This document shows, in pieces, positions 6,788 to 46,282 of a DNA stretch of 64,000 nt. The stretch comes from Escherichia coli (GTDB taxonomy: Bacteria; Pseudomonadota; Gammaproteobacteria; Enterobacterales; Enterobacteriaceae): NCBI RefSeq assembly GCF_016026235.1, contig NZ_CP065613.1. One strand, written 5' to 3'. Numbering within the stretch: position 1 is the stretch's first letter; each line of letters opens with the position of its first letter. The notes beneath the pieces were generated by a model that did not search any database, was not told where the DNA came from, and saw nothing but the letters and a program-made list of their open reading frames with translations. A program made the position numbers and the translations under genes.

Positions 6788-8864
<2,077 letters not shown>

Positions 8865-8881
<17 letters not shown>

Positions 8882-10004: not shown

Positions 10005-10776
10005 AGTGACCTTTCAGCGCGTCGAGCTGCTGCAACACAAAATTCGCCAGATGCAGGTAGTGATCCGGCAGGTTGTAGAGCAAGGTGGCGAAGCAAACCA
10101 GCCCCGCCAGCATGTTGATGGGAAAGCCCAGTGAAAAGAGATTCAGCGGCGGCGCAATGCGGTTGAGCAGGCCAAAGCAGCCCTGCACAATCAGCATGAT
10201 AAAGGTGGTCGGCAGCGCCAGCAGCGATGCGGACGCCAGCACCCAGCTAAAGGCCAGCGCGATGGTGCGCAGGGTTTGTGGATGCAGCGCGTTGCCAATC
10301 GGCCAGTAGGTGAAACCTTTGTACAACACGCTTACCAGCAGCAGATGTCCGTCCATGGCAAAAAACAGCAGGATCGCGTAAACGTTAATAAGCTCCGCCA
10401 GCACGGTGGTCGATGCGCCGCTGCTTGGGTCGTTCATCACCGCCATGCTCATCCCCATATTGAACGAGAGAATTTGCCCGGCGAGTTGTAGCGCCAGAAA
10501 CAGAAACTGGAACATCAGCCCGAATAACATGCCCCATAAAATTTGCTCCACCGTCAGGATCAGACTGTTGAGCGATAACAGATCGTGGGGAATGGGATGG
10601 GGGATCAACGGCGTGATGATGATTGCCAGCGCCAGCGACAGAATAATCCGCACGCGCACGGTCAGGGCGCTGTTATCCAGCACCGGCACATAGCGCAGAA
10701 ACGCCATAATGCGCACGAAGGGAAACCACAGCCCCAGCGCCAGATCCGTCAGTTGCGTAACGTCGCTTGTGCGCAT
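9994..10776 (-). CDS. lfiR: lateral flagellar export protein, FliR family
   Basis: Polytopic membrane protein; start chosen at MRTSDVTQLTD... abutting the lfiQ stop (ORF-track start at 10827 is an upstream extension). Confidence 0.8.
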   Translation of the reverse strand: MRTSDVTQLTDLALGLWFPFVRIMAFLRYVPVLDNSALTVRVRIILSLALAIIITPLIPHPIPHDLLSLNSLILTVEQILWGMLFGLMFQFLFLALQLAGQILSFNMGMSMAVMNDPSSGASTTVLAELINVYAILLFFAMDGHLLLVSVLYKGFTYWPIGNALHPQTLRTIALAFSWVLASASLLALPTTFIMLIVQGCFGLLNRIAPPLNLFSLGFPINMLAGLVCFATLLYNLPDHYLHLANFVLQQLDALKGHYGG

Positions 10777-10777
10777 C

Positions 10778-11050
10778 TTAATGAACCAGCAGAGCGGCTT
10801 GGGTAAACAGATGAATGCACAGATCATGCAACTGGATAATCATCCATTTGCCGCACACGCCCAGCACCACCAGCGTGACAATCAGCCTCGGCAAAAAGCT
10901 CAGGGTCTGTTCGTTAATCTGCGTCACCGCCTGGAACACGCTCACCAGCAGGCCAACCAGCAGGCTTGGCACCACCAGTACCGAAACCAGCAAAATCACT
11001 ACTTTTATGCCGCTGGCGACAATGTCGGCGGCAACGTCTACGGTCAACAT
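10778..11050 (-). CDS. lfiQ: lateral flagellar export protein, FliQ family
   Basis: 90-aa two-TM protein MLTVDVAADIVASGIKVVILL... Confidence 0.85.
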   Translation of the reverse strand: MLTVDVAADIVASGIKVVILLVSVLVVPSLLVGLLVSVFQAVTQINEQTLSFLPRLIVTLVVLGVCGKWMIIQLHDLCIHLFTQAALLVH

Positions 11051-11052
11051 AA

Positions 11053-11805
11053 TCAGCCCAGCCCCAGCCCGCGAATGCTGGTGGTGAGCGTGCCGATGGT
11101 CAGCGACCAGCCGTCGATCAGCACAAACAGCATCAGCTTAAAGGGCAGCGAAACAATCAGCGGCGACAGCATCATCATCCCCATCGCCATCAATACGCTT
11201 GCGACAATCAGGTCGATAACCAGAAACGGGATGTAAATCATAAAGCCAATCTGGAAGGCCGTTTTCAGCTCGCTCAACACATAGGCAGGCACCACAATCG
11301 TGAGATCCTGGTCGGCGGCATTGCCCTTCGCGCCTCCGATGGTCATGATTTGCGCCATCGCTTTTTTGTCTGTCTGCGCCAGCATAAAGCGTTTGAGTGG
11401 CGTCGCGGCGGTGCTTAACGCATCGGTCAGGGTAATCTGATCGTTTTCGAACGGTACCACCGCGTGGTCGTAAATATTGAGCCAGATAGGGCGCATCACC
11501 AGCATGGTGAGGGAGAGCGCAATGCCAATCAGAATGCGATTCGGCGGCGTTTGTTGCAGCCCCAGCGCCTGGCGCAGCAGCGACAGCACGATAATAAAGC
11601 GCGTAAAGCAGGTCATCATCAGCACCATCGTCGGCAGCAAACCGACGAGGGTCATCAGAATCAGTACCTGAATTTTGACGCTGTACTCCTGGGTGTTGCC
11701 GTGGGTGACCACGTTAAGTAGCGCAATATCGCCGCCCTGGGCCAACGCCAGCGGGGCGAGCGCCAGCAGCCCAAGGCCCAGCGTCAGTTGAGTGCGGCGT
11801 TTCAT
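11053..11805 (-). CDS. lfiP: lateral flagellar export protein, FliP family
   Basis: 250-aa ORF with signal peptide and FliP-like membrane core. Confidence 0.9.
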   Translation of the reverse strand: MKRRTQLTLGLGLLALAPLALAQGGDIALLNVVTHGNTQEYSVKIQVLILMTLVGLLPTMVLMMTCFTRFIIVLSLLRQALGLQQTPPNRILIGIALSLTMLVMRPIWLNIYDHAVVPFENDQITLTDALSTAATPLKRFMLAQTDKKAMAQIMTIGGAKGNAADQDLTIVVPAYVLSELKTAFQIGFMIYIPFLVIDLIVASVLMAMGMMMLSPLIVSLPFKLMLFVLIDGWSLTIGTLTTSIRGLGLG

Positions 11806-12173
11806 GGCGCCAGGTCGTTGATATCGCGGGTGTTAAACTCCAGCACGCGCAGGCCGTACTTCTCGTTGACCACCACCACTTCCGCTTTGCCCAGCAGGAT
11901 ATTGTTCACTTTAATATCCAGCGGCTCCCCGGCGAGTTTATCCAGCTCAATCACCGTGTCGTCGTCGATATTAAGGAGGTCGGCTAACATGATTTCCACC
12001 GACGACACTTCCAGCGTTAAGGTCACCGGAATGCGTTTCAGCAGCGTCATCGAGTCGGAAAAACGGTCTTCCAGGCGGGTGACCAGCGTTTCAGCGTCGG
12101 CGGATTTTGCGACAGGCGCAACTTCATCGGTGAGGCCAAAATCCCCGGCTAAAATATCTTCTTGCTTACTCAT
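11802..12173 (-). CDS. lfiN: lateral flagellar switch protein, FliN family
   Basis: C-terminal SpoA/FliN domain (LAGEPLDIKVNNILLGKAEVVVVNEKYGLRV); start taken at MSKQEDIL (ATG 12171-12173); ATG at 12183-12185 is an alternative. Confidence 0.75.
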   Translation of the reverse strand: MSKQEDILAGDFGLTDEVAPVAKSADAETLVTRLEDRFSDSMTLLKRIPVTLTLEVSSVEIMLADLLNIDDDTVIELDKLAGEPLDIKVNNILLGKAEVVVVNEKYGLRVLEFNTRDINDLAP

Positions 12174-13017
12174 GGCTATTCTCATTTTTGCCCGCCAGCT
12201 CCGACAAAAACAGTTTGTCTTTGTCTTCCACAATCAGAGCGCTAAATAATTCAGATTGCCCAATCGCCACCGGGAACGTTTCTCCCAGTGATATGGGTAA
12301 AATATCCCCGGCTTTTATCTGCGTGAGATCCGCGACATTCATCGATAGCTCGGCGATTTTGACGTTCAGGGTCAGCGGCAGGGAGCGGATGATCTCTTTA
12401 ATCAGGGCCGGTTTATTAACGGATTTCGCCACCTGCTGCGGTTTACTGTGCTCGCTGTGGCGGATCAGATTTAAAATAAAATCGGTGTGGGCGTCGTCGA
12501 GCAAAATACGAAAACTGCTCTCTTCATCGCCCGCAAGGGTAAAGGTTAATTGATACGCCCAGTGGGTAATTACCGTGCTGCTGTCCAGCTTTAATTTCAG
12601 CGCAATACCGGATGTTTGCAGATTAAATATCAGCGTGCAGATATCCAGCGCCAGACGGTTTTTTAATCGTGTTTCAGTTTTGGTCGGCAGGACGTTATGC
12701 GCTTTAGCCTCTTCCAGAGACGACTCCAGACCATAAAAATTGCCCAGCAGCATTAACAGCAAGGAGCGATCGATATTAAACGCCAGATGCCCGACCTGGG
12801 AAACCATCAGTTCAGCGTTTTTATTAATAATATCCATTTCGCAGCCAATCTTTTTTAAGGTGATATTGCTGCGATGCTTTTTGAGAAAGTAGCTGCCCAG
12901 ATGCGAATCAATCACGTCAAAATTCCCTGTAAACAGGGTCGGCAGGCGATGGTAGGGGCGTCCGAGCCGATTACCTTCTAATTTAAAGATGCCTGGCGTT
13001 TTACTGTACTTCAGCAT
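12166..13017 (-). CDS. lfiM: lateral flagellar switch protein, FliM family
   Basis: 283-aa ORF heading the lfiMNPQR-lfhBA gene string; C-terminal FliN-like domain. Confidence 0.8.
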   Translation of the reverse strand: MLKYSKTPGIFKLEGNRLGRPYHRLPTLFTGNFDVIDSHLGSYFLKKHRSNITLKKIGCEMDIINKNAELMVSQVGHLAFNIDRSLLLMLLGNFYGLESSLEEAKAHNVLPTKTETRLKNRLALDICTLIFNLQTSGIALKLKLDSSTVITHWAYQLTFTLAGDEESSFRILLDDAHTDFILNLIRHSEHSKPQQVAKSVNKPALIKEIIRSLPLTLNVKIAELSMNVADLTQIKAGDILPISLGETFPVAIGQSELFSALIVEDKDKLFLSELAGKNENSHE

Positions 13018-13196
13018 GGCTTACTTTCTCTGCTGTAATGGTATGGGCGATTTTGTGCACGCAAATCCGGCAGTGACACAAGGTGAGGTATTAAATAGAG
13101 AGGGCGTGAAAGGGGCAAATTATTAATAGGGTGAAAAAATAATTAAATTATTAAAGGGTGAGATATCGGGCATCGTCATAACACATTGCACGAACT

Positions 13197-13285
<89 letters not shown>

Positions 13286-13404
13286 TAACTCATTGTTTAC
13301 CATCAAATAATATTTTTATTATCGTTTAATTCGAACTTGTTAATCCCGCCGGTGATACGCTTCACAATATCCTGTTTTCTGTCGCTACTTATATCGTTCA
13401 CCCT

Positions 13405-31689: not shown

Positions 31690-32355
31690 GTGAAAAATTA
31701 TCTCTGGCTGGTGGCGCTGCTTCCCCTGCTTAGCGGGTGTGAATCGCAGGCCATTCTGGTCAAAAAAGACGACGCATACTTTGCGCCACCGAAAACCGAA
31801 GCGCCGCCTCCGGCAGACGGGCGTGCCGGGGGCGTATTTGAAACCGGCTACAACTGGTCGCTAACCGCCGATCGGCGGGCTTATCGTGTGGGCGATATCC
31901 TGACGGTGATCCTCGAAGAATCCACCCAGTCGAGCAAACAGGCGAAAACCAACTTCGGCAAAAGCAACACCGTCGATATCGGCGCGCCGACCATTTTTGG
32001 ACACACCAAAGATAAGCTTTCCGGCTCCATCGATGCCAACCGCGACTTTGACGGCAGCGCCACCTCCCAGCAGCAGAACAGTCTGCGCGGGGAGATCACC
32101 GTGTCCGTCCACGCGGTGCAGCCCAACGGCATCCTGGAAATTCGCGGCGAAAAATGGCTGACCCTCAACCAGGGCGATGAGTACATCCGTTTAAGCGGCC
32201 TTGTGCGCGCCGACGACATCCAGAACGACAACTCGGTTTCCTCCCAGCGGATCGCCGATGCCCGCATCTCCTATGCCGGACGCGGCGCGTTAAGCGACGC
32301 CAACGCCGCAGGCTGGCTGACGCGACTGTTTAACCATCCTCTGTTCCCGATTTAA
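31690..32355 (+). CDS. lfgH: lateral flagellar L-ring lipoprotein, FlgH family
   Basis: Lipobox LLSGC near the N-terminus; FlgH-like sequence. Confidence 0.9.
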
Positions 32356-32369
32356 TGCCGGAGAGTGCA

Positions 32370-33470
32370 ATGCAAAACTGGATAAAGGCCGCCGTTATCG
32401 CCGTAAGCCTGGCGCTGCCCGGCGTGGCGCTGGCACAATCGCTGGAGTCGCTGGTCAACGTACAGGGCGTGCGTGAAAACCAACTGGTCGGCTACAGCCT
32501 GGTGGTCGGCCTCGACGGCACCGGTGATAAAAACCAGGTCAAATTCACCAACCAGACCATCACCAATATGCTGCGCCAGTTCGGCGTGCAATTGCCGAAT
32601 AAAATCGACCCGAAGGTGAAAAACGTCGCCGCAGTGGCGGTGAGCGCCACGTTGCCGCCGATGTACTCGCGCGGGCAGACCATTGATGTCACCGTCTCGT
32701 CGATTGGCGATGCGAAAAGTATTCGCGGCGGCACCTTGTTGCTGACCCAGCTTCACGGCGCGGATGGCGAAGTGTATGCCCTGGCGCAGGGCTGCGTGGT
32801 GGTCGGCGGGATGAACGCCACCGGGGCCAGCGGTTCCAGCGTGACGGTTAACACACCGACCGCTGGGTTAATTCCCAACGGCGCGACGGTGGAGCGCGAG
32901 ATCCCCAGCGATTTTCAGATGGGCGATACCATCACGCTTAACCTGAAACGCCCGTCATTTAAAGACGCCAACAATATTGCGGCGGCGATTAACGCCTCGT
33001 TTGGCGGCATTGCCACGGCGCAGAGTTCCACCAACGTTACCGTGCGCGCGCCCACCAGCCCCGGCGCGCGGGTGGCGTTTATGTCGCAACTGGATGATGT
33101 GCAGGTGCAGGCGGAGAAAATCCGCGCCCGCGTGGTGTTTAACTCGCGTACCGGTACGGTGGTGATGGGCGATGGCGTTGCGCTACATGCGGCGGCGGTG
33201 TCTCACGGCAGTCTGACCGTCTCGATTAACGAAACCAGCAACGTCAGCCAGCCGAATGCCTTTGCGGGCGGGCGCACGGCGGTAACGCCGCAGAGCAATA
33301 TCGCGGTGAATCATGCGCGCCCGGGCGTGGTGAGTTTGCCGGAGTCGAGCAGCCTGAAAACGCTGGTCAATGCGTTGAACAGTTTGGGCGCGACGCCGGA
33401 CGACATTATGTCGATTTTACAGGCGTTGCATGAAGCGGGCGCACTGGATGCTGACCTGGAGGTGATCTGA
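32370..33470 (+). CDS. lfgI: lateral flagellar P-ring protein, FlgI family
   Basis: Start ATG 32370 after GGAGAG; signal peptide [22 protein letters not shown]. Confidence 0.9.
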
Positions 33471-33769
33471 TGAAAGTTAACGCCAGCGGCGGGATTGACG
33501 GCAGCGATGCGTTAATGGGGCCGAAGGTTCAGGCCAATGATATCAAGCAGGCCGCGGAGCAGTTTGAGGCGATTTTTTTACGCAACATGCTGAAAGAGAT
33601 GCGTAAAACCAACGAGCTGTTTGATTCGAAAGATAACCCGTTTAACAGCGATTCGGTGCGCATGATGCAGGGGTTTTATGACGATGAGCTGTGTAACACC
33701 CTGGCGCAGCAGCACGGGATCGGGATTGCGGCGATGATTGTGAAGCAGTTGTCGCCGAAGCATAAATGA
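33470..33769 (+). CDS. lfgJ: FlgJ-like rod-binding domain protein (no muramidase domain)
   Basis: 99-aa ORF resembling only the FlgJ N-terminal rod-binding domain (EQFEAIFLRNMLKEMRK). Confidence 0.7.
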   Translation: MKVNASGGIDGSDALMGPKVQANDIKQAAEQFEAIFLRNMLKEMRKTNELFDSKDNPFNSDSVRMMQGFYDDELCNTLAQQHGIGIAAMIVKQLSPKHK

Positions 33770-33784
33770 GGTTCCGGCGTTCGG

Positions 33785-34060
33785 CGCACGGTGCCTGATG
33801 CGACGCTGACGCGTCTTATCAGGCCTACGAGTCGCCCGTATGTAGGCCGGATAAGGCGTTCACGCCGCATCCGGCATTTGGTGCACGGTGCCTGATGCGA
33901 CGCTGACGCGTCTTATCAGGCCTACGAATCGCCCGTATGTAGGCCGGATAAGGCGTTCACGCCGCATCCGGCATTTGGTGCACGGTGCCTGATGCGACGC
34001 TGACGCGTCTTATCAGGCCTACGAGTCGCCCGTATGTAGGCCGGATAAGGCGTTCACGCC
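33785..34060. repeat. tandem BIME array, about three copies of a ~98 bp unit
   Basis: Unit cacggtgcctgatgcgacgctgacgcgtcttatcaggcctacga[g/a]tcgcccgtatgtaggccggataaggcgttcacgccgcatccggcatttggtg repeated head-to-tail. Confidence 0.9.
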
Positions 34061-34097
34061 GCTTTTAACCGGCACGATTTACCGGTAAGGATCCAAC

Positions 34098-35474
34098 ATG
34101 GACATGATTAACATCGGCTACAGCGGCGCATCAACCGCGCAGGTGGAGCTGAACGTCACGGCGCAAAACACCGCCAACGCCATGACCACGGGCTACACCC
34201 GCCAGGTGGCGGAGATCAGCACCATCGGCGCCAGCGGCGGTTCGCCGAACAGCGCCGGTAACGGCGTGCAGGTCGACAGCATTCGCCGCGTCTCTAACCA
34301 GTATCAGGTGAATCAGGTGTGGTATGCCGCCAGCGATTACGGCTATTACAGCACCCAGCAGGAGTATCTCACGCAACTGGAAGCGGTATTGAGCGACGAT
34401 AACAGCAGCCTGAGCGGCGGGTTCGATAACTTCTTCGCCGCCCTTAACGAAGCGACCACCAGCCCTGATGATTCCGCCCTGCGCGAGCAGGTGATCAGCG
34501 AAGCCGGGGCGCTGTCGTTGCGTATCGATAACACACTCGATTACGTCGACTCGCAAAGCACGGAAATCATCAGCCAGCAGCAGGCGATGGTGTCGCAAAT
34601 CAATACGCTCACCAGCGGCATCGCCAGCTATAACAAGCAAATCGCCCAGGCCGAAGCCAACGGTGATAACGCCTCTGCGCTGTACGACGCCCGCGATCAG
34701 ATGGTGGAAGAACTCAGCGGGATGATGGATGTGCAGGTTAATATCTACGACCAGGGCAACTACAACGTCACGCTGAAAAATGGTCAGCCGCTGGTGAGCG
34801 GGCAGCAAAGTTCGACCATCGCGCTGGAAACCAACGCCGATGGCACGCCGACCATGTCGCTGACCTTCGCTGGCACTACCTCGACGATGACCACCGACAC
34901 CGGCGGTTCATTAGGCGCACTGTTTGATTATCAAAACGACGTCCTGACGCCGCTGACCGACACCATCAACAGCATGGCGTCGCAGTTTGCCGATGCGGTC
35001 AACAACCAGCTGGCGCAGGGCTACGATCTCAATGGTAACTCCGGCGAGCCGCTGTTTATCTATGACGCCAGCAACGCCGATGGCCCGCTGACCGTTAACC
35101 CGGTTATCACCGCCGATGAGCTGGCGTTTTCCAGTTCACCGGACGAAAGCGGCAACAGCGACAACCTCCAGGCGCTGATCAACATCTCCACCGAACCGCT
35201 GGAGATCGACAATCTTGGCAGCGTGACGGTCGGGCAGGCGTGCTCGTCAATCATCAGCAATATCGGCATCTACAGTCAGCAAAACCAGACGGAAGTCGAT
35301 GCTGCGTCCAATGTCTATTCCGAAGCGCAAAACCAGCAGAGCAGCGTCAGCGGCGTTAGCATGGACGAAGAAGCGGTGAACCTGATCACCTATCAACAAA
35401 TTTATGAAGCCAATCTGAAAGTCATTTCCGCCGGGGCCGAGATTTTCGATTCGGTGCTGGAAATGTGCAGCTAA
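34098..35474 (+). CDS. lfgK: lateral flagellar hook-associated protein 1, FlgK family
   Basis: 458-aa ORF with FlgK-like N-terminus and C-terminal helices. Confidence 0.85.
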   Translation: MDMINIGYSGASTAQVELNVTAQNTANAMTTGYTRQVAEISTIGASGGSPNSAGNGVQVDSIRRVSNQYQVNQVWYAASDYGYYSTQQEYLTQLEAVLSDDNSSLSGGFDNFFAALNEATTSPDDSALREQVISEAGALSLRIDNTLDYVDSQSTEIISQQQAMVSQINTLTSGIASYNKQIAQAEANGDNASALYDARDQMVEELSGMMDVQVNIYDQGNYNVTLKNGQPLVSGQQSSTIALETNADGTPTMSLTFAGTTSTMTTDTGGSLGALFDYQNDVLTPLTDTINSMASQFADAVNNQLAQGYDLNGNSGEPLFIYDASNADGPLTVNPVITADELAFSSSPDESGNSDNLQALINISTEPLEIDNLGSVTVGQACSSIISNIGIYSQQNQTEVDAASNVYSEAQNQQSSVSGVSMDEEAVNLITYQQIYEANLKVISAGAEIFDSVLEMCS

Positions 35475-35488
35475 GCGGGAGCGCGAAA

Positions 35489-36418
35489 ATGCGAGTAACC
35501 ACCCAACAAACCTACGTCTCGATGACGCAAAGTTTTAATAATCTCTCCGGCGATCTGGCGCACGTGGTCGAGCAGATGGCAACCGGTAAGCAGATTTTGC
35601 AGCCGTCGGATGACCCGATCGCCGCCACGCGCATCACCCAGTTAAACCGCCAGCAGTCGGCGATTGAACAGTATCAGAGCAATATCGACTCCGCGTCGGC
35701 GGGGTTAAGCCAGCAGGAATCGATTCTCGATGGCGTCAACAACAGCCTGCTGGCGGTGCGCGACGACCTACTGGAAGCGGCGAACGGCACCAATACCGCC
35801 GATTCGCTCGCAAGCCTCGGCCAGGATATTGAGACGCTCACCGAATCGATGGTCGCGGCGCTGAACTATCAGGATGAAGACGGGCACTACGTGTTTGGCG
35901 GCACCATCAACGATCAGCCGCCGATTGTGGCAGTGGACGATGATGGCGATGGTGTCACCGACAGCTATAGCTACCAGGGCAACAGCGACCACCGCCAGAC
36001 CACCGTATCGAACGGCGTGGAAGTGGATACCAACGTGGCGGCGAGCGATTTCTTCGGCAGCAATTTAGACGTGCTCAACACGCTCAATTCGCTCTCGCAG
36101 GAGTTGCAAAACCCCAACGTTGACCCGGCAGATCCGCAGGTGCAGAGTGATATTCAGAACGCCGTTGATGTGGTGGACACCGCCTCGGACGACCTCAACG
36201 CCTCGATTGCGTCACTCGGCGAGACGCAGAACACCATGTCGATGTTGAGCGATGCGCAGACCGATATCTCTACCTCTAATGATGAGTTGATTGGTTCATT
36301 ACAGGATCTCGATTACGGCCCGGCGTCGATCACCTTTACCGGACTGGAAGTGGCAATGGAAGCTACCCTCAAGACTTACTCGAAGGTGAGTGAGTTGAAT
36401 TTGTTCAGCGTTCTCTAA
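35489..36418 (+). CDS. lfgL: lateral flagellar hook-associated protein 3, FlgL family
   Basis: Start at MRVTTQQTYVSM; flagellin-like N-domain motif QPSDDPIAA. Confidence 0.8.
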   Translation: MRVTTQQTYVSMTQSFNNLSGDLAHVVEQMATGKQILQPSDDPIAATRITQLNRQQSAIEQYQSNIDSASAGLSQQESILDGVNNSLLAVRDDLLEAANGTNTADSLASLGQDIETLTESMVAALNYQDEDGHYVFGGTINDQPPIVAVDDDGDGVTDSYSYQGNSDHRQTTVSNGVEVDTNVAASDFFGSNLDVLNTLNSLSQELQNPNVDPADPQVQSDIQNAVDVVDTASDDLNASIASLGETQNTMSMLSDAQTDISTSNDELIGSLQDLDYGPASITFTGLEVAMEATLKTYSKVSELNLFSVL

Positions 36419-38557: not shown

Positions 38558-39042
38558 AGTTGAGTTTACCTTAGCAAGGGATAAATGTTCCTGATAGTGC
38601 TTTGCATAAAGCACAGTCTTATACGTCCCTGAGAAGATGATTTTTCTGCGTGATAATTAATATTTTATGGTAATAGGATTATTCTTAATCACTATATGGC
38701 GTGGAAATGTAACGAAATGACAGGACAGGTACAATAGCCAAATGTGTACTATTTGCAACGCAATGTAAATTTTGGCATCAGTACATTGAGAAGAAAACGC
38801 ATTAATTGATGGTAATCTTAACTATATCAAGCGTTTGATAAAGACATATTTTGATACCTGGCCATGTGGCAGATATTGCTAATAATCTTTTTATCTGAAT
38901 TTAAACTCTGCTTTTTTTTAGCTAAAAGTGGCATCAGATAATACGTAGCGAAAATTTTTTCATAGCGATTTTAAGTTTGCTCCTGAGGTGTCGTTTTTAC
39001 AGGGTATCGAAACGAAAACGATTAATCCCAAGGAGCAGTATC

Positions 39043-39957
39043 ATGTTATCTATTAACACCAATAACGCCTCAATGGCCGCCGTTAATGCAATCAGCAAAA
39101 GCAGCTCTTCTCTGTCTACATCTATGGAACGCCTGGCGACAGGTAACCGGATTAACTCTTCTGCCGATGACGCCGCAGGCAAACAAATTGCTAACCGTCT
39201 GACTGCACAGTCCAGCGGTATGGGCGTGGCGCTGAGCAACATCAATGATGCCACCGCGATGCTGCAAACCGCTGACAGCATGTTCGACGAAATGTCTGAC
39301 GTGCTGGGCCGTATGAAAGACCTGTCAACTCAGGCAGCGAACGGCACCTACAGCGACGACGATCTGCAGGCGATGCAGGACGAATACGACGAACTGGGTC
39401 AGCAGATGTCTGACATGCTGCAAAATACCACTTACGGCGGTACCAACCTGTTCGGTGTTTCCGGTACCAGCAACACCGGTACTGACGGTCTGTTCCAGAG
39501 CGCGGTAACTTTCCAGGTGGGCGCGGAATCTTCCGACACCATGACCGTGAATATTTCAAGCCAGCTGAATACCCTGGTGACGGATCTTTCTGCTATCAGC
39601 AACTCCTTCAGTGCGGATCAGGCAGACACCACGGGTACTGCAGGCGTGTCTGGCGGTACTGAGCTGACTGCGTCTGGCTCGGCTAACCAGATGATCACCA
39701 GCATTTCTACCGCGATGGATGACGTGTCGCAGATCCAGTCCAAACTGGGTGCGTCTATTAACCGTCTGAACGACACTGCCAACAACCTGACCAGCATGCA
39801 GGACAACACCGAAGTCGCTATCGGTAACATCATGGATACCGACTACGCGACGGAAGCGTCCAACATGACCAAACAGCAGGTGCTGATGCAAACCGGCATC
39901 ACCATGCTGAAACAGTCCAACAGCATGTCCAGCATGGTTTCCAGCCTGCTGCAGTAA
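39043..39957 (+). CDS. lafA: lateral flagellin
   Basis: Start ATG 39043 after AGGAG; conserved flagellin N-terminus (MLSINTNNASMAAVNAISKSSSSL) and C-terminus (LMQTGITMLKQSNSMSSMVSSLLQ). Confidence 0.9.
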   Translation: MLSINTNNASMAAVNAISKSSSSLSTSMERLATGNRINSSADDAAGKQIANRLTAQSSGMGVALSNINDATAMLQTADSMFDEMSDVLGRMKDLSTQAANGTYSDDDLQAMQDEYDELGQQMSDMLQNTTYGGTNLFGVSGTSNTGTDGLFQSAVTFQVGAESSDTMTVNISSQLNTLVTDLSAISNSFSADQADTTGTAGVSGGTELTASGSANQMITSISTAMDDVSQIQSKLGASINRLNDTANNLTSMQDNTEVAIGNIMDTDYATEASNMTKQQVLMQTGITMLKQSNSMSSMVSSLLQ

Positions 39958-39967
39958 TGGCGGACTT

Positions 39968-40000
39968 GCCGGATGCGGCGTAAACGCCTTATTCGGCCTA
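39968..40000. repeat. REP element downstream of lafA
   Basis: ccggatgcggcgtaaacgccttattcggcctac. Confidence 0.75.
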
Positions 40001-40004
40001 CGAA

Positions 40005-40033
40005 CAACACCGCCTGCGGGCGGTGTTGTGCTT
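40005..40033 (+). terminator. rho-independent terminator after lafA
   Basis: Hairpin aacaccgcc-tgcg-ggcggtgtt followed by a T-rich tract. Confidence 0.5.
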
Positions 40034-40116
40034 TCTGCGGCAGGCTTTTTTCCGCCAGACCGGAAACGCCATTTCCGCCAGTTTTTCAATCTATTGATTA
40101 TTCACATAAAAAATAT

Positions 40117-40131
40117 TGGCACGCCTTTTGC
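40117..40131 (+). promoter_or_regulatory. sigma-54 promoter upstream of lafB (TGGCACG-N4-TTGC)
   Basis: tggcacgccttttgc is a full match to the -24 GG / -12 GC consensus, 33 nt upstream of the lafB start. Confidence 0.65.
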
Positions 40132-40163
40132 CAATAACCTGACATCGTTACCCGGAGTCATCA

Positions 40164-41480
40164 ATGATCAACCCAAGAACCATTGCGCAAGAAATCGCGT
40201 ATGCGGATGTTGCCACTCAGGCGGCAAACTTGCAGGAAAAGCAAACGGAGCTGGATGCCGAAAGCAGCGGCCTGGACTCGCTCAGCTCAGCGTTGAGCGA
40301 TTTCCAGAGCGCCGTCGACGCGCTGAACAGCGATACCGACGGCCCGGTGACTTTTGCCGCCACCAGCAATAATGACTCGGCGACTGTTTCCGCTAACTCG
40401 CAGGCGCAGGCGGGAAGCTACTCATTTTTCGTTGAGCAACTGGCGCAGGGGCAGCAAACCACGTTCAGTATGGGCGACGACGCCTTTTCCGCCACCGGCA
40501 CTTTTGAACTGACGATGGGCGACAGCACCATGGATATCGATCTGTCTGCGGCAGATCAGAACGGTGACGGCGACGGTTATATCGACGCCAGCGAGCTGGT
40601 GAGCGCGATTAACGACTCCGACGATAATCCGGGCGTTTCAGCGGCACTGGTAAAAACCGACGGCACCACCACGATAATGTTCACCTCGGATAGCACCGGG
40701 GCGCAGAGCGCGTTTTCGGTGAGCGTAACGGGGCATGACGCCAGCAACGATAGCACCAGCGCGCCCGTTGCCACGGATGTTTCCTCAGCCCAGGACGCGA
40801 TTATTCATCTCGGCAGCGCCACGGGGCCAGCCATCACCAACAGCAGCAACACTTTTGATGATGTGATCCCCGGCGTCACCATGACCTTTAGCGAAGTCAG
40901 CGACTCTGACAGCGATCTCACCACCTTTAACATTAGCGAAGATTCCAGCGCCACCGAAGACAAAGTGCAGACCTTTGTCGATGCCTATAACACGCTGATT
41001 GATACCGTCGATTCACTGACCACCAGCGGCAGCGACAGTACCAGCGCCGGGGTTTTTGCCGGAGATGCGGGACTCAGCTCACTGGCAAACCAGCTCGATG
41101 ACATCGCCCACGCCAGCTACAACGGCGAGTCGATTGTCGATTACGGCATTACGCTCGACTCCAATGGCCATTTGCAGATCGACTCTGATCAGTTCAACGA
41201 CGCGATGAAAAGTGACCCTGACGGTCTGACCTCTATTTTCGTTGGCGACAACAGCATGGTGGCGCAGATGGACGACCTGATTAACACCTACACGGACTCC
41301 AGCAACGGCATCATCACCCTGCGCCAGCAGAACATTGACGATCAGATGAGCAAAATTCAGGACGAAGGCGATCAGCTTACCGATACCTATAACGCCAACT
41401 ACGACCGTTATCTCGAGGAGTACACCAACACGCTGGTCGAGGTGTACACCATGAAAGCCAGCATGGCGGCATTCGCGTAA
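40164..41480 (+). CDS. lafB: lateral flagellar filament cap protein (HAP2), FliD family
   Basis: 438-aa ORF; motif VQTFVDAYNTLIDTVDSLT matches the FliD C-terminal region. Confidence 0.8.
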   Translation: MINPRTIAQEIAYADVATQAANLQEKQTELDAESSGLDSLSSALSDFQSAVDALNSDTDGPVTFAATSNNDSATVSANSQAQAGSYSFFVEQLAQGQQTTFSMGDDAFSATGTFELTMGDSTMDIDLSAADQNGDGDGYIDASELVSAINDSDDNPGVSAALVKTDGTTTIMFTSDSTGAQSAFSVSVTGHDASNDSTSAPVATDVSSAQDAIIHLGSATGPAITNSSNTFDDVIPGVTMTFSEVSDSDSDLTTFNISEDSSATEDKVQTFVDAYNTLIDTVDSLTTSGSDSTSAGVFAGDAGLSSLANQLDDIAHASYNGESIVDYGITLDSNGHLQIDSDQFNDAMKSDPDGLTSIFVGDNSMVAQMDDLINTYTDSSNGIITLRQQNIDDQMSKIQDEGDQLTDTYNANYDRYLEEYTNTLVEVYTMKASMAAFA

Positions 41481-41502
41481 CTCAGAAGGAATATCCCTAA
41501 AG

Positions 41503-41895
41503 ATGTACCAAGTACAGGACGGCTATTCACAATATAAAGAGATCGATCTCGCGGCGCGTACTGCGGCGGCATCGCCTCTGGAACTGGTGCTGGTGCTGTT
41601 TTCTGGCCTGATGGACGAGCTGGAACGCGCCAAAAGCCATATTGAAGGGCGGCGTTTCGAGAAGAAAGCCCAGAGCATCAATAAATGCATCGACATTCTC
41701 AATGCGCTCACCAGTTCGCTGGAGTTTGAAACTGGCGGCGAGCTGGTGGTCAACCTTTCGCGACTCTATGACCACTGCGTTTACCGATTGTATGAGGCCA
41801 GCGGCGAACTGTCGGCAGAGAAAATCGATGAAGTGATGCTGATCTTAAGCAACCTGCGCGAAGGCTGGGAAGGGCTTTCGGGCAAGCTGGGTTAA
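41503..41895 (+). CDS. lafC: flagellin-specific chaperone, FliS family
   Basis: 130-aa four-helix-bundle-like ORF with FliS-like sequence. Confidence 0.8.
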   Translation: MYQVQDGYSQYKEIDLAARTAAASPLELVLVLFSGLMDELERAKSHIEGRRFEKKAQSINKCIDILNALTSSLEFETGGELVVNLSRLYDHCVYRLYEASGELSAEKIDEVMLILSNLREGWEGLSGKLG

Positions 41896-41899
41896 GACG

Positions 41900-42211
41900 A
41901 TGGAAAAACAACGCAGGCAACTTTTCGCACTGGTCGAGGCGATGAATGAAGCCCTCGACAAGCAACGCTGGCGACGCCTTCCGGCACTGCATCAGCAGTT
42001 GATACGCCAGTTTCACGATTACGCGGCGGCGGAAACCGATGCGGCGCAGTTGGATGCAGTGAAAGCGCGACTGTATGACGCGTTTAACGCCCTGATTAAA
42101 CGGCGTGAGCAGCGCGCAGAAGTGTTGAAAGCGCGTATGGAACAGCATCAGCGGCATCAGGAAGGCGTACTGGCCTACTCAATTGTTAATTTACTTTCGG
42201 AGAAGTCATGA
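41900..42211 (+). CDS. lafD: FliT-like export chaperone (probable)
   Basis: 103-aa helical ORF between fliS- and fliK-like genes. Confidence 0.55.
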   Translation: MEKQRRQLFALVEAMNEALDKQRWRRLPALHQQLIRQFHDYAAAETDAAQLDAVKARLYDAFNALIKRREQRAEVLKARMEQHQRHQEGVLAYSIVNLLSEKS

Positions 42212-43269
42212 ATCCGGCATTGCTTGCCACGCTCGGAACGCTTGCGGAAACCGCTTCGTTGAAGGCGGATATTTTACCGCCGGTGAGCGGTGAAAATGCG
42301 CCCGCGTTTACCCTGCCGAAAATGGCGGTCGCGGCGGTGGCGGAGCGCGTTCATAGCGCTAAAACCAGTCAGCAACAGGCGACGCGCCCGCAGGAGAACG
42401 ATCCGGTGGCGATGCAGGCGCTAATGGCGCTGTTACTTCCGCAACCTGCCGCGCCGCATCAGGACACGCCGCAGCCGCGAAACGTCGCAACATCGCCGGT
42501 TATCCAGCAATTGACGAAAGCGGTGGTGCAAAACGCGCCGCAACGCCCGACGCAACAGCAGGAACTCACGCCGTTGCCGCCGCAGTTGCAGGAACTGATC
42601 AGTCAGTTGCCGCAGGCGAAGCCCGAACAGCAGGCCAGATTAGCGACTTACGCCAGTGAAGATTTACATGCCATTGCGCCGACGCAGCCGCGCGTCTCAA
42701 CACAGCCAGCTCGCCCGAAACCTGAACTAACCCGTGTGACCGCGCGCCCGCAGGTCGAGCGTAAAACGGAAAAAGTGCCGGACAGCGAACCGGTGATTGC
42801 GCGTGCGGTGTTGCAGGTTAAGACGCCGGAGCTGCTCAGCGAGCATCAGGAGATTGTCGCCAAACCAGCCACGCTTTCGATGGATGAACTGGGCGAAAAA
42901 CTGACGACGCTGTTGAAAGATCAGATCCACTTTCAGCTCAACAAACAACAGCAGATCTCCACCATCCGTCTCGATCCACCGTCGCTTGGCAAGCTCGAGA
43001 TCGCCGTACAACTCGACAACGGCAAACTGATGGTGCACATCGGCGCGAACCAAAGTGAAGTTTGCCGCGCGTTACAGCAGTTTAGCGACGATCTCCGCCA
43101 GCATCTGACGGCGCAAAATTTTATGGAGGTGAACGTACAGGTTTCCTCCGAAGGGCAGTCGCAGCAACAACAACAGTCGGGCCATCAGCAGGAAGAGGTG
43201 AGTGCTGCCTTACAGCTTGATGATGCGCCTCAATTTCAACAGAACGAATCCGTTTTGATCAAAGTGTAA
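42208..43269 (+). CDS. lafE: hook-length control protein, FliK family
   Basis: Pro/Gln-rich central region and FliK-like C-terminal domain (LGKLEIAVQLDNGKLMVHIGANQSEV). Confidence 0.7.
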   Translation: MNPALLATLGTLAETASLKADILPPVSGENAPAFTLPKMAVAAVAERVHSAKTSQQQATRPQENDPVAMQALMALLLPQPAAPHQDTPQPRNVATSPVIQQLTKAVVQNAPQRPTQQQELTPLPPQLQELISQLPQAKPEQQARLATYASEDLHAIAPTQPRVSTQPARPKPELTRVTARPQVERKTEKVPDSEPVIARAVLQVKTPELLSEHQEIVAKPATLSMDELGEKLTTLLKDQIHFQLNKQQQISTIRLDPPSLGKLEIAVQLDNGKLMVHIGANQSEVCRALQQFSDDLRQHLTAQNFMEVNVQVSSEGQSQQQQQSGHQQEEVSAALQLDDAPQFQQNESVLIKV

Positions 43270-43276
43270 AGGCAAT

Positions 43277-43744
43277 ATGAAGAAAATCGTGGTGGCGGGC
43301 GTGGTCAGCGCCGTTCTGGCGTTGGTGGTGGGGGCCGGAGCTGGATGGGGTGTCTGGCATCATTATGCCGGAAAAGGAAAACCGACTGCCGCCGCGCAGA
43401 CGGAAACGGTGGAAACCCTGGATGAAAGCAAAAGCGTGTTTGTGACGTTGCCGGAAACCATTGTCACGCTGCATGACAATAACGGCGCGGACCATTATTT
43501 GTCGGCGGAATTAGTGATGGTGGTCGCCAGTGACAAAGAAGCGGAAAAAATAAAACATCAGGAGCCACTGTATCAAAGTATTGCGGTTGAATGCCTGACG
43601 GAAATGAAATTTGAAGATTTGCGTGGCATGAAAATATCTGCCATCCGCAAACTGATTTCGGATGCGTTAAAGAAAGATCTTCAGCGTCGCAAAATGAGCG
43701 CACCGTATAAGGATTTGCTGGTGAAAAAAGTGGTCTTCCAGTAA
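43277..43744 (+). CDS. lafF: flagellar basal-body-associated protein, FliL family
   Basis: 155-aa ORF with a single N-terminal TM segment and FliL-like periplasmic domain. Confidence 0.7.
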   Translation: MKKIVVAGVVSAVLALVVGAGAGWGVWHHYAGKGKPTAAAQTETVETLDESKSVFVTLPETIVTLHDNNGADHYLSAELVMVVASDKEAEKIKHQEPLYQSIAVECLTEMKFEDLRGMKISAIRKLISDALKKDLQRRKMSAPYKDLLVKKVVFQ

Positions 43745-43763
43745 TCACCAGGCGGATATAAAT

Positions 43764-44480
43764 ATGCGACAGGATGTATTCGAGTCGGAAGAATTTGCTG
43801 CCGCGCCGGTATTAACCCCGCAGCAGGAGAGCCACTACTTGCAGGCCTATTTACCGTTGGTGCGTAAAGTGGTGCGGCAACTTGCCCCGCAGTGTAATTG
43901 CATTATTGATCGTCAGGATATGGAACAAACGGCGTTAATGGGGCTGCTTAATGCCATCCGCCGCTACGGGCTGCCGGACGAAGGTTTTGCGGGCTATGCC
44001 GTGCACCGTATTCGCGGCGCGATCCTGGATGAGCTGCGCGCTCTCGACTGGCGACCGCGCCAGCTGCGACAGAAATATCATCAGATGAAAGATCTGATTC
44101 GCGAAACGCGCAAAAAACTGGGGCACGAACCGGAGTGGTCAGAACTGGCCGTGGAAGGGATCTCGCATGAAGATTATCTCGAATATCAGCAACTGGAAGG
44201 GGCGGAAACGCTCGCCAGCCTAGACGAACTGCTGAACGGCGAAGGGCCTGGCATTCTGCTTGCTGGCCGGGAGCTGGAAGATCAGTTTGTCACCCAGCAA
44301 ATGCTGCAACAGGCGCTTTCACAATTAAGCGAAAAAGAGCAACTGATCCTCTCCATGTATTACCAGCATGAGATGAATCTCAAAGAGATTGCGCTGGTAT
44401 TAGGGCTAACCGAGGCCCGAATTTGTCAACTGAATAAACAGATCGCGCAGAAAATTCGTGATTTTGTCTATCCGAATTAA
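43764..44480 (+). CDS. lafS: lateral flagellar sigma-28 factor (FliA family)
   Basis: 238-aa sigma-70-family protein with region 2 and region 4 HTH (LKEIALVLGLTEARICQL). Confidence 0.85.
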   Translation: MRQDVFESEEFAAAPVLTPQQESHYLQAYLPLVRKVVRQLAPQCNCIIDRQDMEQTALMGLLNAIRRYGLPDEGFAGYAVHRIRGAILDELRALDWRPRQLRQKYHQMKDLIRETRKKLGHEPEWSELAVEGISHEDYLEYQQLEGAETLASLDELLNGEGPGILLAGRELEDQFVTQQMLQQALSQLSEKEQLILSMYYQHEMNLKEIALVLGLTEARICQLNKQIAQKIRDFVYPN

Positions 44481-44492
44481 AGTGAAGAAATC

Positions 44493-45356
44493 ATGCAAAA
44501 AATATTAGGTTTACTGGTGGTGCTCGGCTGCGTATTTGGCGGTTATTTTGAAGCGGGCGGGCAATTAGTGGCTATCTGGCAACCGGCGGAAATGATCATT
44601 ATTTTGGGTGCCGGTTTCGGGGCGATGATTATTGGTAACCCGAAACATGTGCTGAAAGAGATTGCCCATCAAATTAAAGGCGTAATCAGTAAAAAACAGC
44701 TCGGGCCGGAGTTTCAGCGCCAGCTATTAATGTGCCTGTATGAGTTGCTGGAAATGGTGCAAAACGGCGGCCTGCGCATGCTGGATCAACATATTGAGCA
44801 ACCGGAAGAGAGCACCATTTTCCAGAAATACCCGCTGGTGTTAACCCAGAAGCGGCTGGTGACCTTTATTGCCGATAACTTTCGCCTGATGGCGATGGGT
44901 AAAATCGACGCCCATGAACTGGAAGGCATTCTCGATCAGGAACTGGATACCGCCGAAGAGTCGCTGCTAACGCCGTCGCGCTCGCTGCAACGTACTGCCG
45001 AAGCGATGCCGGGATTTGGTATTTGTGCCGCCGTGCTGGGCATCATCATCACCATGCAGTCGATTGACGGCTCTATCGCCCTGATTGGCCTGAAAGTGGC
45101 GGCAGCGCTGGTGGGGACGTTTTTAGGCGTCTTTATCTGCTACTGCCTGATGGATCCGCTCGCCAACGCCATGGAACAACAGGCGCGGGCAGAACATTCT
45201 TTGCTGGAATGCGTGCGTACCGTGCTGGTGGCGCAGGCAGGCGGCAAACCGACGCTGCTGGCGGTGGATGCCGGGCGTAAGCTGCTGCATCTGGCATCTA
45301 AACCGACCTTCGCCAACCTCGACGCGTGGGTGAATGCGATGCTGGAGCAAGAATAA
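44493..45356 (+). CDS. lafT: lateral flagellar stator protein, MotA family
   Basis: 287-aa four-TM MotA/PomA-like protein. Confidence 0.85.
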   Translation: MQKILGLLVVLGCVFGGYFEAGGQLVAIWQPAEMIIILGAGFGAMIIGNPKHVLKEIAHQIKGVISKKQLGPEFQRQLLMCLYELLEMVQNGGLRMLDQHIEQPEESTIFQKYPLVLTQKRLVTFIADNFRLMAMGKIDAHELEGILDQELDTAEESLLTPSRSLQRTAEAMPGFGICAAVLGIIITMQSIDGSIALIGLKVAAALVGTFLGVFICYCLMDPLANAMEQQARAEHSLLECVRTVLVAQAGGKPTLLAVDAGRKLLHLASKPTFANLDAWVNAMLEQE

Positions 45357-45358
45357 GC

Positions 45359-46282
45359 ATGAGAAAGACGGGCAACCGCCGCGAGCGTGGGGCAAAAACC
45401 ACCATCGTCCGGCGGCAGATCAAAAAGAATCATGCCGGGCACCACGGCGGGGCGTGGAAGGTGGCGTTCGCCGACTTTACTTTGGCAATGATGGCGCTGT
45501 TTATGACGCTGTGGATTGTCAACAGCGTCAGTAAATCCGAGCGTGAAAGCATTATCGCCGCGCTGCACGGGCAGTCGATTTTTAACGGTGGCGGGCTGTC
45601 GCCGTTAAATAAAATCAGCCCGTCTCATCCGCCAAAACCTGCCACCGTGGCGGTGCCGGAAGAGACGGAGAAAAAAGCGCGTGACGTCAATGAGAAAACG
45701 GCGCTGCTGAAGAAGAAATCCGCCACCGAGCTTGGCGAGCTGGCAACCAGTATCAACACTATTGCCCGTGATGCGCATATGGAAGCGAATCTGGAGATGG
45801 AGATTGTCCCGCAGGGATTACGCGTGCTGATTAAAGACGACCAGAATCGCAATATGTTCGAACGCGGCAGCGCGCAGATTATGCCGTTCTTTAAAACGCT
45901 GCTGGTGGAGCTCGCGCCAGTTTTCGACTCGCTCGATAACAAAATTATTATTACCGGGCATACCGATGCGATGGCCTACAAAAACAATATCTACAACAAC
46001 TGGAACCTTTCGGGCGATCGCGCGCTTTCGGCTCGTCGGGTGCTGGAAGAGGCCGGAATGCCGGAAGATAAAGTGATGCAGGTGAGCGCAATGGCGGACC
46101 AGATGCTGCTGGACGCCAAAAATCCGCAAAGCGCGGGCAACCGGCGCATTGAGATTATGGTGCTGACCAAAAGTGCGTCCGATACGTTGTATCAATACTT
46201 TGGTCAGCATGGAGATAAAGTGGTGCAGCCGCTGGTGAAAAAGCTGGATAAGCAGCAGGTGCTTTCGCAGCGAACGCGTTAA
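45359..46282 (+). CDS. lafU: lateral flagellar stator protein, MotB family (OmpA-like C-domain)
   Basis: Start at MRKTGNRRE (ATG 45359); TM segment FADFTLAMMALFMTLWIV; OmpA-like peptidoglycan-binding domain (IITGHTD...NRRIEIMV). Confidence 0.85.
   Translation: MRKTGNRRERGAKTTIVRRQIKKNHAGHHGGAWKVAFADFTLAMMALFMTLWIVNSVSKSERESIIAALHGQSIFNGGGLSPLNKISPSHPPKPATVAVPEETEKKARDVNEKTALLKKKSATELGELATSINTIARDAHMEANLEMEIVPQGLRVLIKDDQNRNMFERGSAQIMPFFKTLLVELAPVFDSLDNKIIITGHTDAMAYKNNIYNNWNLSGDRALSARRVLEEAGMPEDKVMQVSAMADQMLLDAKNPQSAGNRRIEIMVLTKSASDTLYQYFGQHGDKVVQPLVKKLDKQQVLSQRTR

Follow-up and report, generated by a model that had tools for sequence, protein, structure and literature searches.

In Vibrio parahaemolyticus, LafK together with sigma-54 drives the class II lateral flagellar genes, the lateral sigma-28 gene among them, whose product then directs the class III genes (PMC4481668, PMC3658858). 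A sigma-54 site has been predicted before lafB of this species, and expression of lafBCD is reduced in an rpoN mutant (PMC9817140). In the polar flagellates that use FleQ, FlrA, or FlaK, class II is expressed by sigma-54 and a dedicated AAA+ activator, followed by a sigma-28 tier (PMC3930126). The flag-2 loci of the Enterobacterales were compared by De Maayer et al. in 2020; LafK is a predicted regulator in that comparison, and the word “promoter” occurs in it 0 times (PMC6993521). Here, we analyzed a stretch of 64,000 nucleotides (nt) of Escherichia coli DNA (contig NZ_CP065613.1 of assembly GCF_016026235.1), referred to below as the window, which is the Flag-2 (lateral-type, secondary flagellar) locus of this species. 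The element under study is a sigma-54-type motif in front of lafB. A real sigma-54 promoter, conserved in evolution, precedes the lafB-lafU operon, and we consider the explanation as a whole, in which this promoter drives a single lafB-lafU mRNA with LafK as its activator, probable.

The motif lies on the sense strand, in the non-coding 206-nt spacer between lafA and lafB, and 3' of the hairpin that follows lafA. The elements of this region are the following.

40049–40056: extra half-site TTTCCGCC upstream of the lafB repeat
40061–40077: inverted repeat CGGAAA-N5-TTTCCG (GGAAA-N5-TTTCC at 40062–40076), centered at about −74 from the predicted lafB start
40087–40099, minus strand: IHF-like site AATCAATAGATTG, a perfect match to WATCAANNNNTTR, centered at about −50, between the repeat and the −24 element
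40117–40131, plus strand: sigma-54 promoter core TGGCAC-N5-TTGC, TGGCACGCCTTTTGC, with GG at 40118–40119 and GC at 40130–40131
40154–40157: Shine-Dalgarno sequence GGAG ahead of the lafB ATG
40164–41480, plus strand: lafB, with its ATG at 40164

The GG and GC elements are exactly 10 bp apart, and 32 nt lie between the motif and the lafB start codon. An earlier interpretation made from the letters alone (the sequence-only reading) had claimed a sigma-54 consensus match with correct spacing 33 nt upstream of lafB; we found the match to be exact, and the figure of 33 nt is obtained when counting from the last C. Based on the usual geometry of sigma-54 promoters, transcription is predicted to start at about 40143, some 21 nt before the lafB start codon. 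The rpoN gene is a core gene of E. coli and lies outside the window.

Counting both strands, the exact sequence TGGCAC-N5-TTGC occurs once in the 64 kb. Shuffled windows contained a mean of 0.35 exact matches, and at least one match was present in 29 of 100 shuffles; therefore, the window-wide match by itself is not significant. Scaled from the shuffle rate, the number of exact matches expected on the sense strand of the 206-nt lafA-lafB spacer is about 6e-4. A weight-matrix scan, which the sequence-only reading had put forward as a check, ranked 40117–40131 first in the window with a score of 17.8 bits, and the maxima of 30 shuffles had a mean of 14.9 bits (standard deviation 1.3, highest 17.9).

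Relatives of the lafB locus were retrieved from a genome collection with a nine-sequence LafB alignment, which yielded 22 Enterobacterales loci (Escherichia spp., Pseudocitrobacter, nine Citrobacter lineages, Phytobacter, Leminorella, Enterobacter sp., Pseudescherichia, and other Enterobacteriaceae). In all 22, the best sigma-54 match in the 400 nt before lafB scored between 16.6 and 19.7 bits, and the core was located 29–42 nt before the true lafB ATG. The invariant positions across these loci were TGGCA(C/T)-N5-TTGC(T/C), with the five spacer bases and both flanks varying freely. The core was also retained in six distant loci at about 35% LafB identity, namely those of Vibrio alfacsensis (TGGCGTACATTTTGC), two Pseudomonas-type loci, a Rouxiella-like locus, and two further contigs. 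Among seven diverse E. coli strains, TTGGCACGCCTTTTGCCAATAA was identical, although the flanking bases on both sides differ. Spacer and flanks have diverged around a TGGCAY-N5-TTGC that holds its position before lafB, and the core is therefore unlikely to have arisen by chance.

Both the sigma-54 motif and the upstream repeat were absent from two other loci, each of which is a weak control: a Rubrivivax locus, in which no lafK was called between fliM and fliE and fliD directly follows fliJ, and a Paludibacterium locus. A metagenome scan with a 19-mer of the published V. parahaemolyticus lafB site returned only unrelated coding sequences from gut metagenomes. The lafA-lafB spacer differs in length among E. 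coli strains, being 763 nt in A32 (43759–44523), 206 nt in the window (39958–40163), and 409 nt in an O25b:H4 strain; those strains agree in its last ~110 nt, where the repeat, the IHF-like site, and the promoter are located.

The core faces eight genes that we predict to be cotranscribed, and it is separated from lafA by two structured elements.

39954–39998: repetitive extragenic palindromic (REP) element separating the stop codon of lafA from the terminator hairpin, from a sub-threshold match to naRNA4 (REP-derived) and the RNA fold
40004–40029, plus strand: likely lafA terminator, an 11-bp GC-rich hairpin with the weak U-tract CUUUCU
40164–46282, plus strand: predicted transcription unit lafB-lafC-lafD-lafE-lafF-lafS-lafT-lafU, from family assignments and junctions

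The description of lafB to lafU as a co-directional string with short or overlapping junctions was borne out, as the junctions range from −4 to 22 nt and the family scans agree. Protein families were assigned by NCBIfam scans, which gave clear results for five of the eight genes: LafB is FliD-like, LafC is FliS, LafS is FliA-type, LafT is MotA, and LafU is LafU/MotB. The assignment of LafS as a FliA-type sigma factor came from the lateral-specific model NF009091 (447 bits). LafE matched a type III needle-length-determinant domain weakly and below threshold and is annotated as FliK in RefSeq, the FliL matches of LafF were weak and sub-threshold, and LafD matched no NCBIfam family. Terminator-like sites were not in excess within lafB-lafU (10, compared with 8.5 expected from shuffles), and a single transcription unit is the simplest reading of the string. 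The same gene order, lafB-C-D-E-F-S-T-U, was found in the Vibrio, Pseudomonas-type, and Rouxiella-like loci. Upstream of the core, the RNA fold of 39955–40090 reached −65 kcal/mol (z = −5.7), and an Rfam scan gave only the sub-threshold REP-derived naRNA4 match, so that the region is not explained by any RNA family. Since lafA is followed by a REP element and an 11-bp hairpin, lafB should have its own promoter.

The inverted repeat upstream of the lafB core is not confined to this promoter. The pattern GGAAR-N5-YTTCC has three copies in the window compared with 0.26 expected, and none of 100 shuffles reached three. The copies are at 40062–40076, 28304–28318, and 26767–26781, and each of the three sigma-54-type motifs in the locus has one of them on its 5' side. 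The two further pairs comprise the following elements.

26712–26726, minus strand: sigma-54-type promoter CGGCACGCTTATTGC of a fliB-like lysine-N-methylase gene, 35 nt before the ATG at 26676
26767–26781: third repeat copy GGAAAATCCATTTCC, at about −74 from the predicted start of the methylase gene
28304–28318: second repeat copy GGAAATACAACTTCC, within the 5' end of the coding sequence of lfgA, which is divergent, and at about −85 relative to the predicted start of lfgB
28370–28384, plus strand: lfgB sigma-54 promoter, damaged, TGACACGGCGATTGC here compared with TGGCACGGCGATTGC in E. coli A32

The −24 element of lfgB reads TGACAC instead of TGGCAC in the window. This change of the near-invariant GG to GA, which A32 and four other genera do not share, is likely a promoter-down mutation. 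Strain A32 contains the same three repeat/promoter pairs, with TGGCAC intact at lfgB, and intact equivalents of the lfgB promoter are found in P. vulneris-like, Leminorella, Paramixta, and E. cloacae-complex loci. In Leminorella, the pair of sigma-54-type site and repeat is also present at the methylase gene.

The spacing between repeat and promoter is conserved as well. Measured from the repeat center to the GG, the distance is 47–51 nt at lafB in each of the 22 Enterobacterales loci. At lfgB, it is 60–62 nt in a Pseudescherichia-like contig, Leminorella, and Paramixta, and a one-mismatch version of the repeat occurs in an Enterobacter cloacae-complex locus. In Vibrio alfacsensis, 60 nt separate the repeat from the lafB sigma-54 site downstream of it; the corresponding figures are about 52 and about 94 nt for the Pseudomonas-type loci, and the Rouxiella-like locus carries a GGAAC variant. 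Across 583 kb of related loci, we counted 45 strict repeats compared with about 2 expected by uniform chance; 36 of these 45 are followed 40–130 nt downstream by a sigma-54 site scoring 16 bits or more, and such a repeat precedes 35 of the 38 sites in this score class. Over 35 loci, the repeat-to-GG distances cluster at 47–51 and 59–62 nt, approximately one helical turn (~11 bp) apart. The fifth position of the arms varies independently on the two sides, with A/T, G/T, A/C, and G/C all seen, which fits a protein-binding site and not an RNA stem.

Several relatives carry more than one copy upstream of the same core. In E. coli 2013C-4081, the region upstream of lafB contains a perfect tandem array (344–420) with 3.3 copies of the 23-bp unit TTTCCGCCAGACCGGAAACGCCA, and two repeat copies 23 bp apart are present in Pseudescherichia vulneris, UBA7338, and one further contig. 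Arrays with a 23-bp period are the pattern expected of dimer sites that nucleate an AAA+ oligomer, and they may tune promoter strength.

The repeat is probably a LafK enhancer, that is, an upstream activating sequence (UAS) that LafK would bind, and we hold this with moderate confidence. One repeat common to three sigma-54-type promoters is expected for a single dedicated activator, and its two distance classes, fixed orientation, and reach across orders would be hard to explain otherwise. Of 29 lafB promoters, 10 matched the IHF consensus WATCAANNNNTTR perfectly and 18 matched it with no more than one mismatch, offset and orientation being the same throughout, in related sequences and an AT-rich region; shuffled spacers gave means of 0.25 and 3.65, respectively. 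We regard these counts as suggestive only of a conserved IHF-like site. A textbook enhancer-dependent sigma-54 promoter consists of a UAS, an IHF bend, and a −24/−12 core, and because the elements upstream of lafB, including the candidate IHF site, would reproduce this architecture, we read the repeat as the enhancer of LafK. The sequence GGAAA-N5-TTTCC is presumably unlike the sites of NtrC, NifA, or PspF and unlike the FleQ box.

We also lean, if modestly, toward a wider proposal, in which GCGGAAA-N5-TTTCCGC at about −74/−85 is the DNA site of LafK, has been kept from Vibrio through the Enterobacterales to Pseudomonas, and together with the core delimits a LafK regulon that includes flagellin-modification genes. 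By this signature, the modification genes in the regulon would be the fliB-like methylase gene in E. coli and Leminorella and a DegT aminotransferase gene in a Pseudomonas fragi-like locus. In the literature searched, which was incomplete, we found no LafK-binding site described, and an earlier report is possible; the conserved repeat may be new.

Two pairs at other positions were observed in the related loci. On the P. fragi-like contig (15182–15322), the repeat GGAAGTGGCGCTTCC lies 119 nt upstream of the strong sigma-54 site TTGGCACGGCTTCTGCA, and the pair precedes the DegT-type aminotransferase gene, which stands beside a large glycosyltransferase gene; this suggests that flagellin-glycosylation genes belong to the same regulon in that locus. 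In Enterobacteriaceae RIT691 (~4590–4670, minus strand), a repeat and the sigma-54 site ATGGCATGCTTATTGCT occur 59 nt apart, ~1.8 kb upstream of lafB.

The candidate activator and the candidate sigma-28-type promoters of the locus are as follows.

13405–14382 (coding 13405–14379), plus strand: lafK, whose 325-aa product is a sigma-54 enhancer-binding protein comprising an AAA+ domain (GETGAGKE, GAFTGA) and a helix-turn-helix (HTH)
27561–27588, minus strand: lfgMN sigma-28-type promoter candidate TAAAGTTT-N12-ACCGCTTT, seen in this one sequence
38971–38997, plus strand: lafA sigma-28-type promoter TTAAGTTT-N11-GTCGTTTT

LafK had been named by the sequence-only reading as a sigma-54 activator encoded in the same locus, and its motifs agree with this: at 13405–14379 we found the Walker A motif GETGAGKE, the sigma-54-contacting loop GAFTGA, a Walker B motif, and a C-terminal Fis-type HTH. 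The AAA+ domain starts at about residue 3, and the protein has no receiver or other N-terminal regulatory domain. PspF is an activator of this kind, without a regulatory domain; the likeness argues that LafK is probably active whenever it is made, and control would then lie at the level of lafK expression. We found no sigma-54 motif before lafK or the divergent lfiM operon, and sigma-54 scores did not exceed about 6 in the lfiM/lafK intergenic region or before lfgF, lfgG, lfgH, lfgK, and lafS. The absence of a motif before lafK and lfiM agrees with reports on Vibrio and Aeromonas in which genes of the lafK/lfiM type are placed above LafK or outside its control (PMC3930126, PMC4481668). The region between the divergent lfiM and lafK genes (13018–13404) contains a REP element and neither a sigma-54 nor a convincing sigma-28 motif; the top-tier promoters, those of lafK-lfiE-J and lfiM-lfhA, are of another type.

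Late genes such as lafA and lfgMN had been placed under LafS, and the sequence is consistent with this, as both have sigma-28-type promoters and no sigma-54 motif was found upstream of lafA or lfgM. The elements upstream of both genes fit a TAAAGTTT-N11-GCCGATAA-like sigma-28 pattern, and the lafA promoter is conserved across genera as TTAA(G/T)TTT-N11/12-G(T/C)CG(T/C)TTT. Its −10 element, GTCGTTTT, differs from the consensus for E. coli FliA, GCCGATAA, and may thus be LafS-specific. Immediately 5' of the conserved lafA promoter is an A/T-tract, AAAATTTTTT. The proposed hierarchy from LafK and sigma-54 to lafS likewise gained support, given that the core is conserved, lafS lies within the operon, LafK is intact, and the repeat is common to three promoters. 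This hierarchy is the V. parahaemolyticus model carried to an orthologous locus, with little in it that is new; the lafB promoter is the orthologue of a known LafK/sigma-54 class II promoter, and a specialist would expect it.

Together, these features suggest a mechanism for the expression of the operon. Transcription from the RpoN promoter would start ~21 nt before the lafB ATG and would yield one mRNA for lafB-C-D-E-F-S-T-U, encoding the filament cap, the FliS-type export chaperone LafC, the small LafD, a hook-length protein, a FliL-like protein, LafS, and the stator LafT/LafU. A sigma-54 holoenzyme cannot open its closed complex unaided. LafK would bind CGGAAA-N5-TTTCCG near −74, and bending of the DNA at the IHF-like site near −50 would allow the LafK oligomer to touch the holoenzyme, whereupon ATP hydrolysis by LafK would open the promoter. 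The same repeat-plus-promoter module at lfgB, which precedes the rod, hook, and ring genes, and at the fliB-like flagellin methylase gene would bring both into the LafK regulon. LafS produced from the lafB operon would then read the sigma-28-type promoters of lafA and lfgMN. Dependence of the E. coli lafB-lafU genes on LafK and RpoN is thus something we infer from the arrangement of motifs and genes.

The role of the repeat is where another explanation has some, if small, likelihood: the sigma-54 promoter would be real, and the repeat would be either an RNA hairpin that aids termination of lafA or lfgMN or the site of another regulator, for example LafZ. A simple scan did flag the lafB repeat as terminator-like, with the stem CGGAAA/TTTCCG and the tail CCAGTTTTTC, and the methylase-gene copy is situated just 3' of the lfgN stop codon. 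However, the lfgB copy lies in the 5' coding region of lfgA in five genera and is thus not a terminator there, and lafA is already followed, in E. coli as in distant loci, by a stronger hairpin of its own. Moreover, it is the sequence of the arms that is conserved and not merely their pairing, with no compensatory pattern, and the distance from repeat to −24 element is fixed at 47–51 or 59–62 nt. LafZ, a ToxR/CadC-like membrane protein encoded beside lafA, does have a winged-helix Trans_reg_C domain, but the repeat is kept in Vibrio and Rouxiella-like loci that have no Trans_reg_C gene beside lafA, making LafZ a weaker candidate. ToxR-type winged-helix proteins usually bind direct repeats, which also counts against LafZ as the binder of this inverted one. 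It is considerably less probable that lafB-lafU is transcribed mainly from a different promoter, by read-through from the lafA sigma-28 promoter or from an overlapping sigma-28-like element, with the sigma-54 site minor or vestigial. The U-tract of the lafA terminator is weak, AAAATATT-N12-GCCAATAA at 40110–40137 matches 12 of 16 FliA consensus positions, and fliD of Salmonella has both class 2 and class 3 promoters. Nevertheless, GCCAATAA is limited to the Escherichia/Pseudocitrobacter clade, and in other genera unrelated sequence follows the TTGC; we therefore rejected the element at 40110 as the main promoter, since it occurs in one clade only. In addition, lafS is located inside the lafB operon, and a purely sigma-28-dependent operon could not start itself.

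Two accounts that deny the core a promoter function appear to us very improbable, and equally so. According to one, 40114–40136 serves some unrelated dimeric regulator as a palindromic operator, or else acts as a terminator on the minus strand. The core is indeed embedded in a perfect 8-bp inverted repeat, TATTGGCA-N7-TGCCAATA, and 40136–40114 on the minus strand was flagged as terminator-like, with 8 pairs and a T-run. Against this, no minus-strand gene ends at 40114–40136, lafB runs the opposite way, and the sigma-54 consensus is itself partly self-complementary. The symmetry is also not kept, as YZMc3-1 has TGTTGGCA and other genera have TTGCTGACT, TTGCTTTTG, or TTGCTAACA downstream, whereas the asymmetric TGGCAY-N5-TTGC is invariant; we rejected the operator and the terminator on these grounds. 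According to the other account, the motif is a chance consensus match without function. One exact match per 64 kb is unsurprising given the shuffles described above, and one shuffled sequence reached the same matrix score as 40117–40131. Other good-scoring matches in the window are themselves treated as chance: that at 21851 (minus strand) is inside a REP/BIME element, has a poor −12, and lacks an upstream repeat, and that at 44248 (plus strand) is inside lafS and is not conserved outside Escherichia and Pseudocitrobacter. What a chance match does not account for is the position and orientation of the lafB core, the conservation of the exact consensus positions across genera down to ~35% LafB identity, the presence of the cognate activator LafK in the locus, and the co-occurrence of the core with a common upstream repeat.

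A number of points nevertheless weigh against a sigma-54 promoter at lafB that depends on LafK through the repeat. Purified RpoN alone gave no shift of the V. parahaemolyticus lafB fragment (PMC9817140), a result from a weak assay, as sigma-54 was used without core polymerase. Transcription of many lateral gene clusters of A. hydrophila does not depend on LafK (PMC4481668), so LafK dependence in E. coli need not be strict. No transcript start and no rpoN or lafK mutant data for E. coli were found in the literature reached. At lafB and at the methylase gene, the repeat is followed by a T-run and was flagged as terminator-like, and a dual or alternative role is possible at these two places. Some read-through from the lafA sigma-28 promoter into lafB is possible, given the weak U-tract. 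The related loci are non-independent samples, so that the counts overstate significance, and the sigma-54 weight matrix, written after the Barrios et al. 1999 consensus, is approximate and not a curated one. Finally, the circuit downstream of the lafB promoter is broken in this strain, where lfgE is absent and the lfgB promoter is mutated.

To map the genes, those annotated in A32 were translated and the products aligned to the window. The map comprises three clusters, lfhAB-lfiRQPNM-lafK-lfiEFGHIJ, lfgNMAB...L, and lafWZABCDEFSTU, placed by this mapping as listed here.

6791–13017, minus strand: lfhA to lfiM
Ending at 19863: lfiE-J
Between lfiE-J and lfgN: variable region with glycosyltransferase and fliB-like methylase genes
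26809–28340, minus strand: lfgN, lfgM, and lfgA
28422–36418, plus strand: lfgB to lfgL
Between lfgL and lafA: lafW, then lafZ (minus strand)
39043–39957: lafA
3' of lafU, which ends at 46282: dinB

FDAARGOS_943 is 99.9% identical to the window, and the lafA-lafB stretch was found in ~1275 of 5426 complete E. coli genomes. The locus in this strain is decayed. The hook gene lfgE is missing: lfgD ends at 29904 and lfgF starts at 30006, whereas A32 has a 400-aa lfgE there, and the gap at 29905–30005 contains a REP-like element and what appear to be the last lfgE codons. The fliB-like lysine-N-methylase gene (24444–26676, minus strand) is in two pieces, 26676–26386 and 25091–24444, split by an insertion with an IS4-family transposase fragment (open reading frame 25439–26128); its sigma-54-type promoter and upstream repeat remain intact despite the split. 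A large glycosyltransferase gene at 21958–24392 (minus strand) is interrupted near 22740 and aligns to residues 1–551 and 553–812 of the A32 protein. The lafB promoter, its repeat, and lafK look intact, and the lafB operon may still be transcribed in this strain, which is unlikely to assemble the flagellum. The GG-to-GA change at lfgB and the loss of lfgE together exemplify decay of a locus at both the regulatory and the coding level.

The promoter itself adds little beyond showing that the E. coli Flag-2 locus keeps the V. parahaemolyticus cascade. If the repeat is the LafK site, it would provide a cis-signature, simple and testable, by which the LafK regulon could be recognized in any genome, including the approximately one quarter of E. 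coli genomes and the many Enterobacterales that carry Flag-2. Flagellin-modification genes would, in that case, share a regulatory tier with the rod, hook, and cap genes.

The Flag-2 locus of E. coli 042 was reportedly described by Ren et al. in 2005 (J Bacteriol 187:1430). The window represents the same locus as that of E. coli 042 and other Enterobacterales, with the same three clusters, and this strain's copy differs from theirs in lacking lfgE and in carrying other lesions. Compared with V. parahaemolyticus, the lafB-lafU genes (fliDSTKLA-motAB of the lateral set, VPA1550-1557) have the same order, with the lateral sigma-28 gene inside the operon. LafK is encoded in the lateral flagellar system of that species, too, and the hierarchy has the same three tiers (PMC4481668, PMC3658858). 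A sigma-54-type site also precedes lafB there, TAGGCACGTATCTTGCGAT (PMC9817140), whereas the E. coli site is an exact consensus match. In contrast to V. parahaemolyticus, E. coli lacks a polar flagellum that could serve as a surface sensor, and its circuit is known from sequence only. In V. alfacsensis, the sigma-54-type site TGGCGTACATTTTGC has GGAAA-N5-TTTCC upstream, as in E. coli, and the repeat is about one helical turn closer to the GG in the Enterobacterales (~49 nt from its center) than in V. alfacsensis (60 nt).

Outside the lateral systems, the arrangement proposed for lafB resembles that of Klebsiella pneumoniae nifH and of E. coli pspA and glnHp2, which likewise combine a dyad activator site, an IHF-like site in between, and a core with −24 GG and −12 GC. 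The lafB repeat is nearer to the start (about −74 or −85) than many classical UAS, which lie at −100 to −150. An N-terminal FleQ or receiver domain is present in the FleQ, FlrA, and FlaK activators and absent from E. coli LafK. The systems of FleQ, FlrA, and FlaK have four tiers and a second activator pair (FlrBC/FleSR), whereas the Flag-2 scheme has three tiers.

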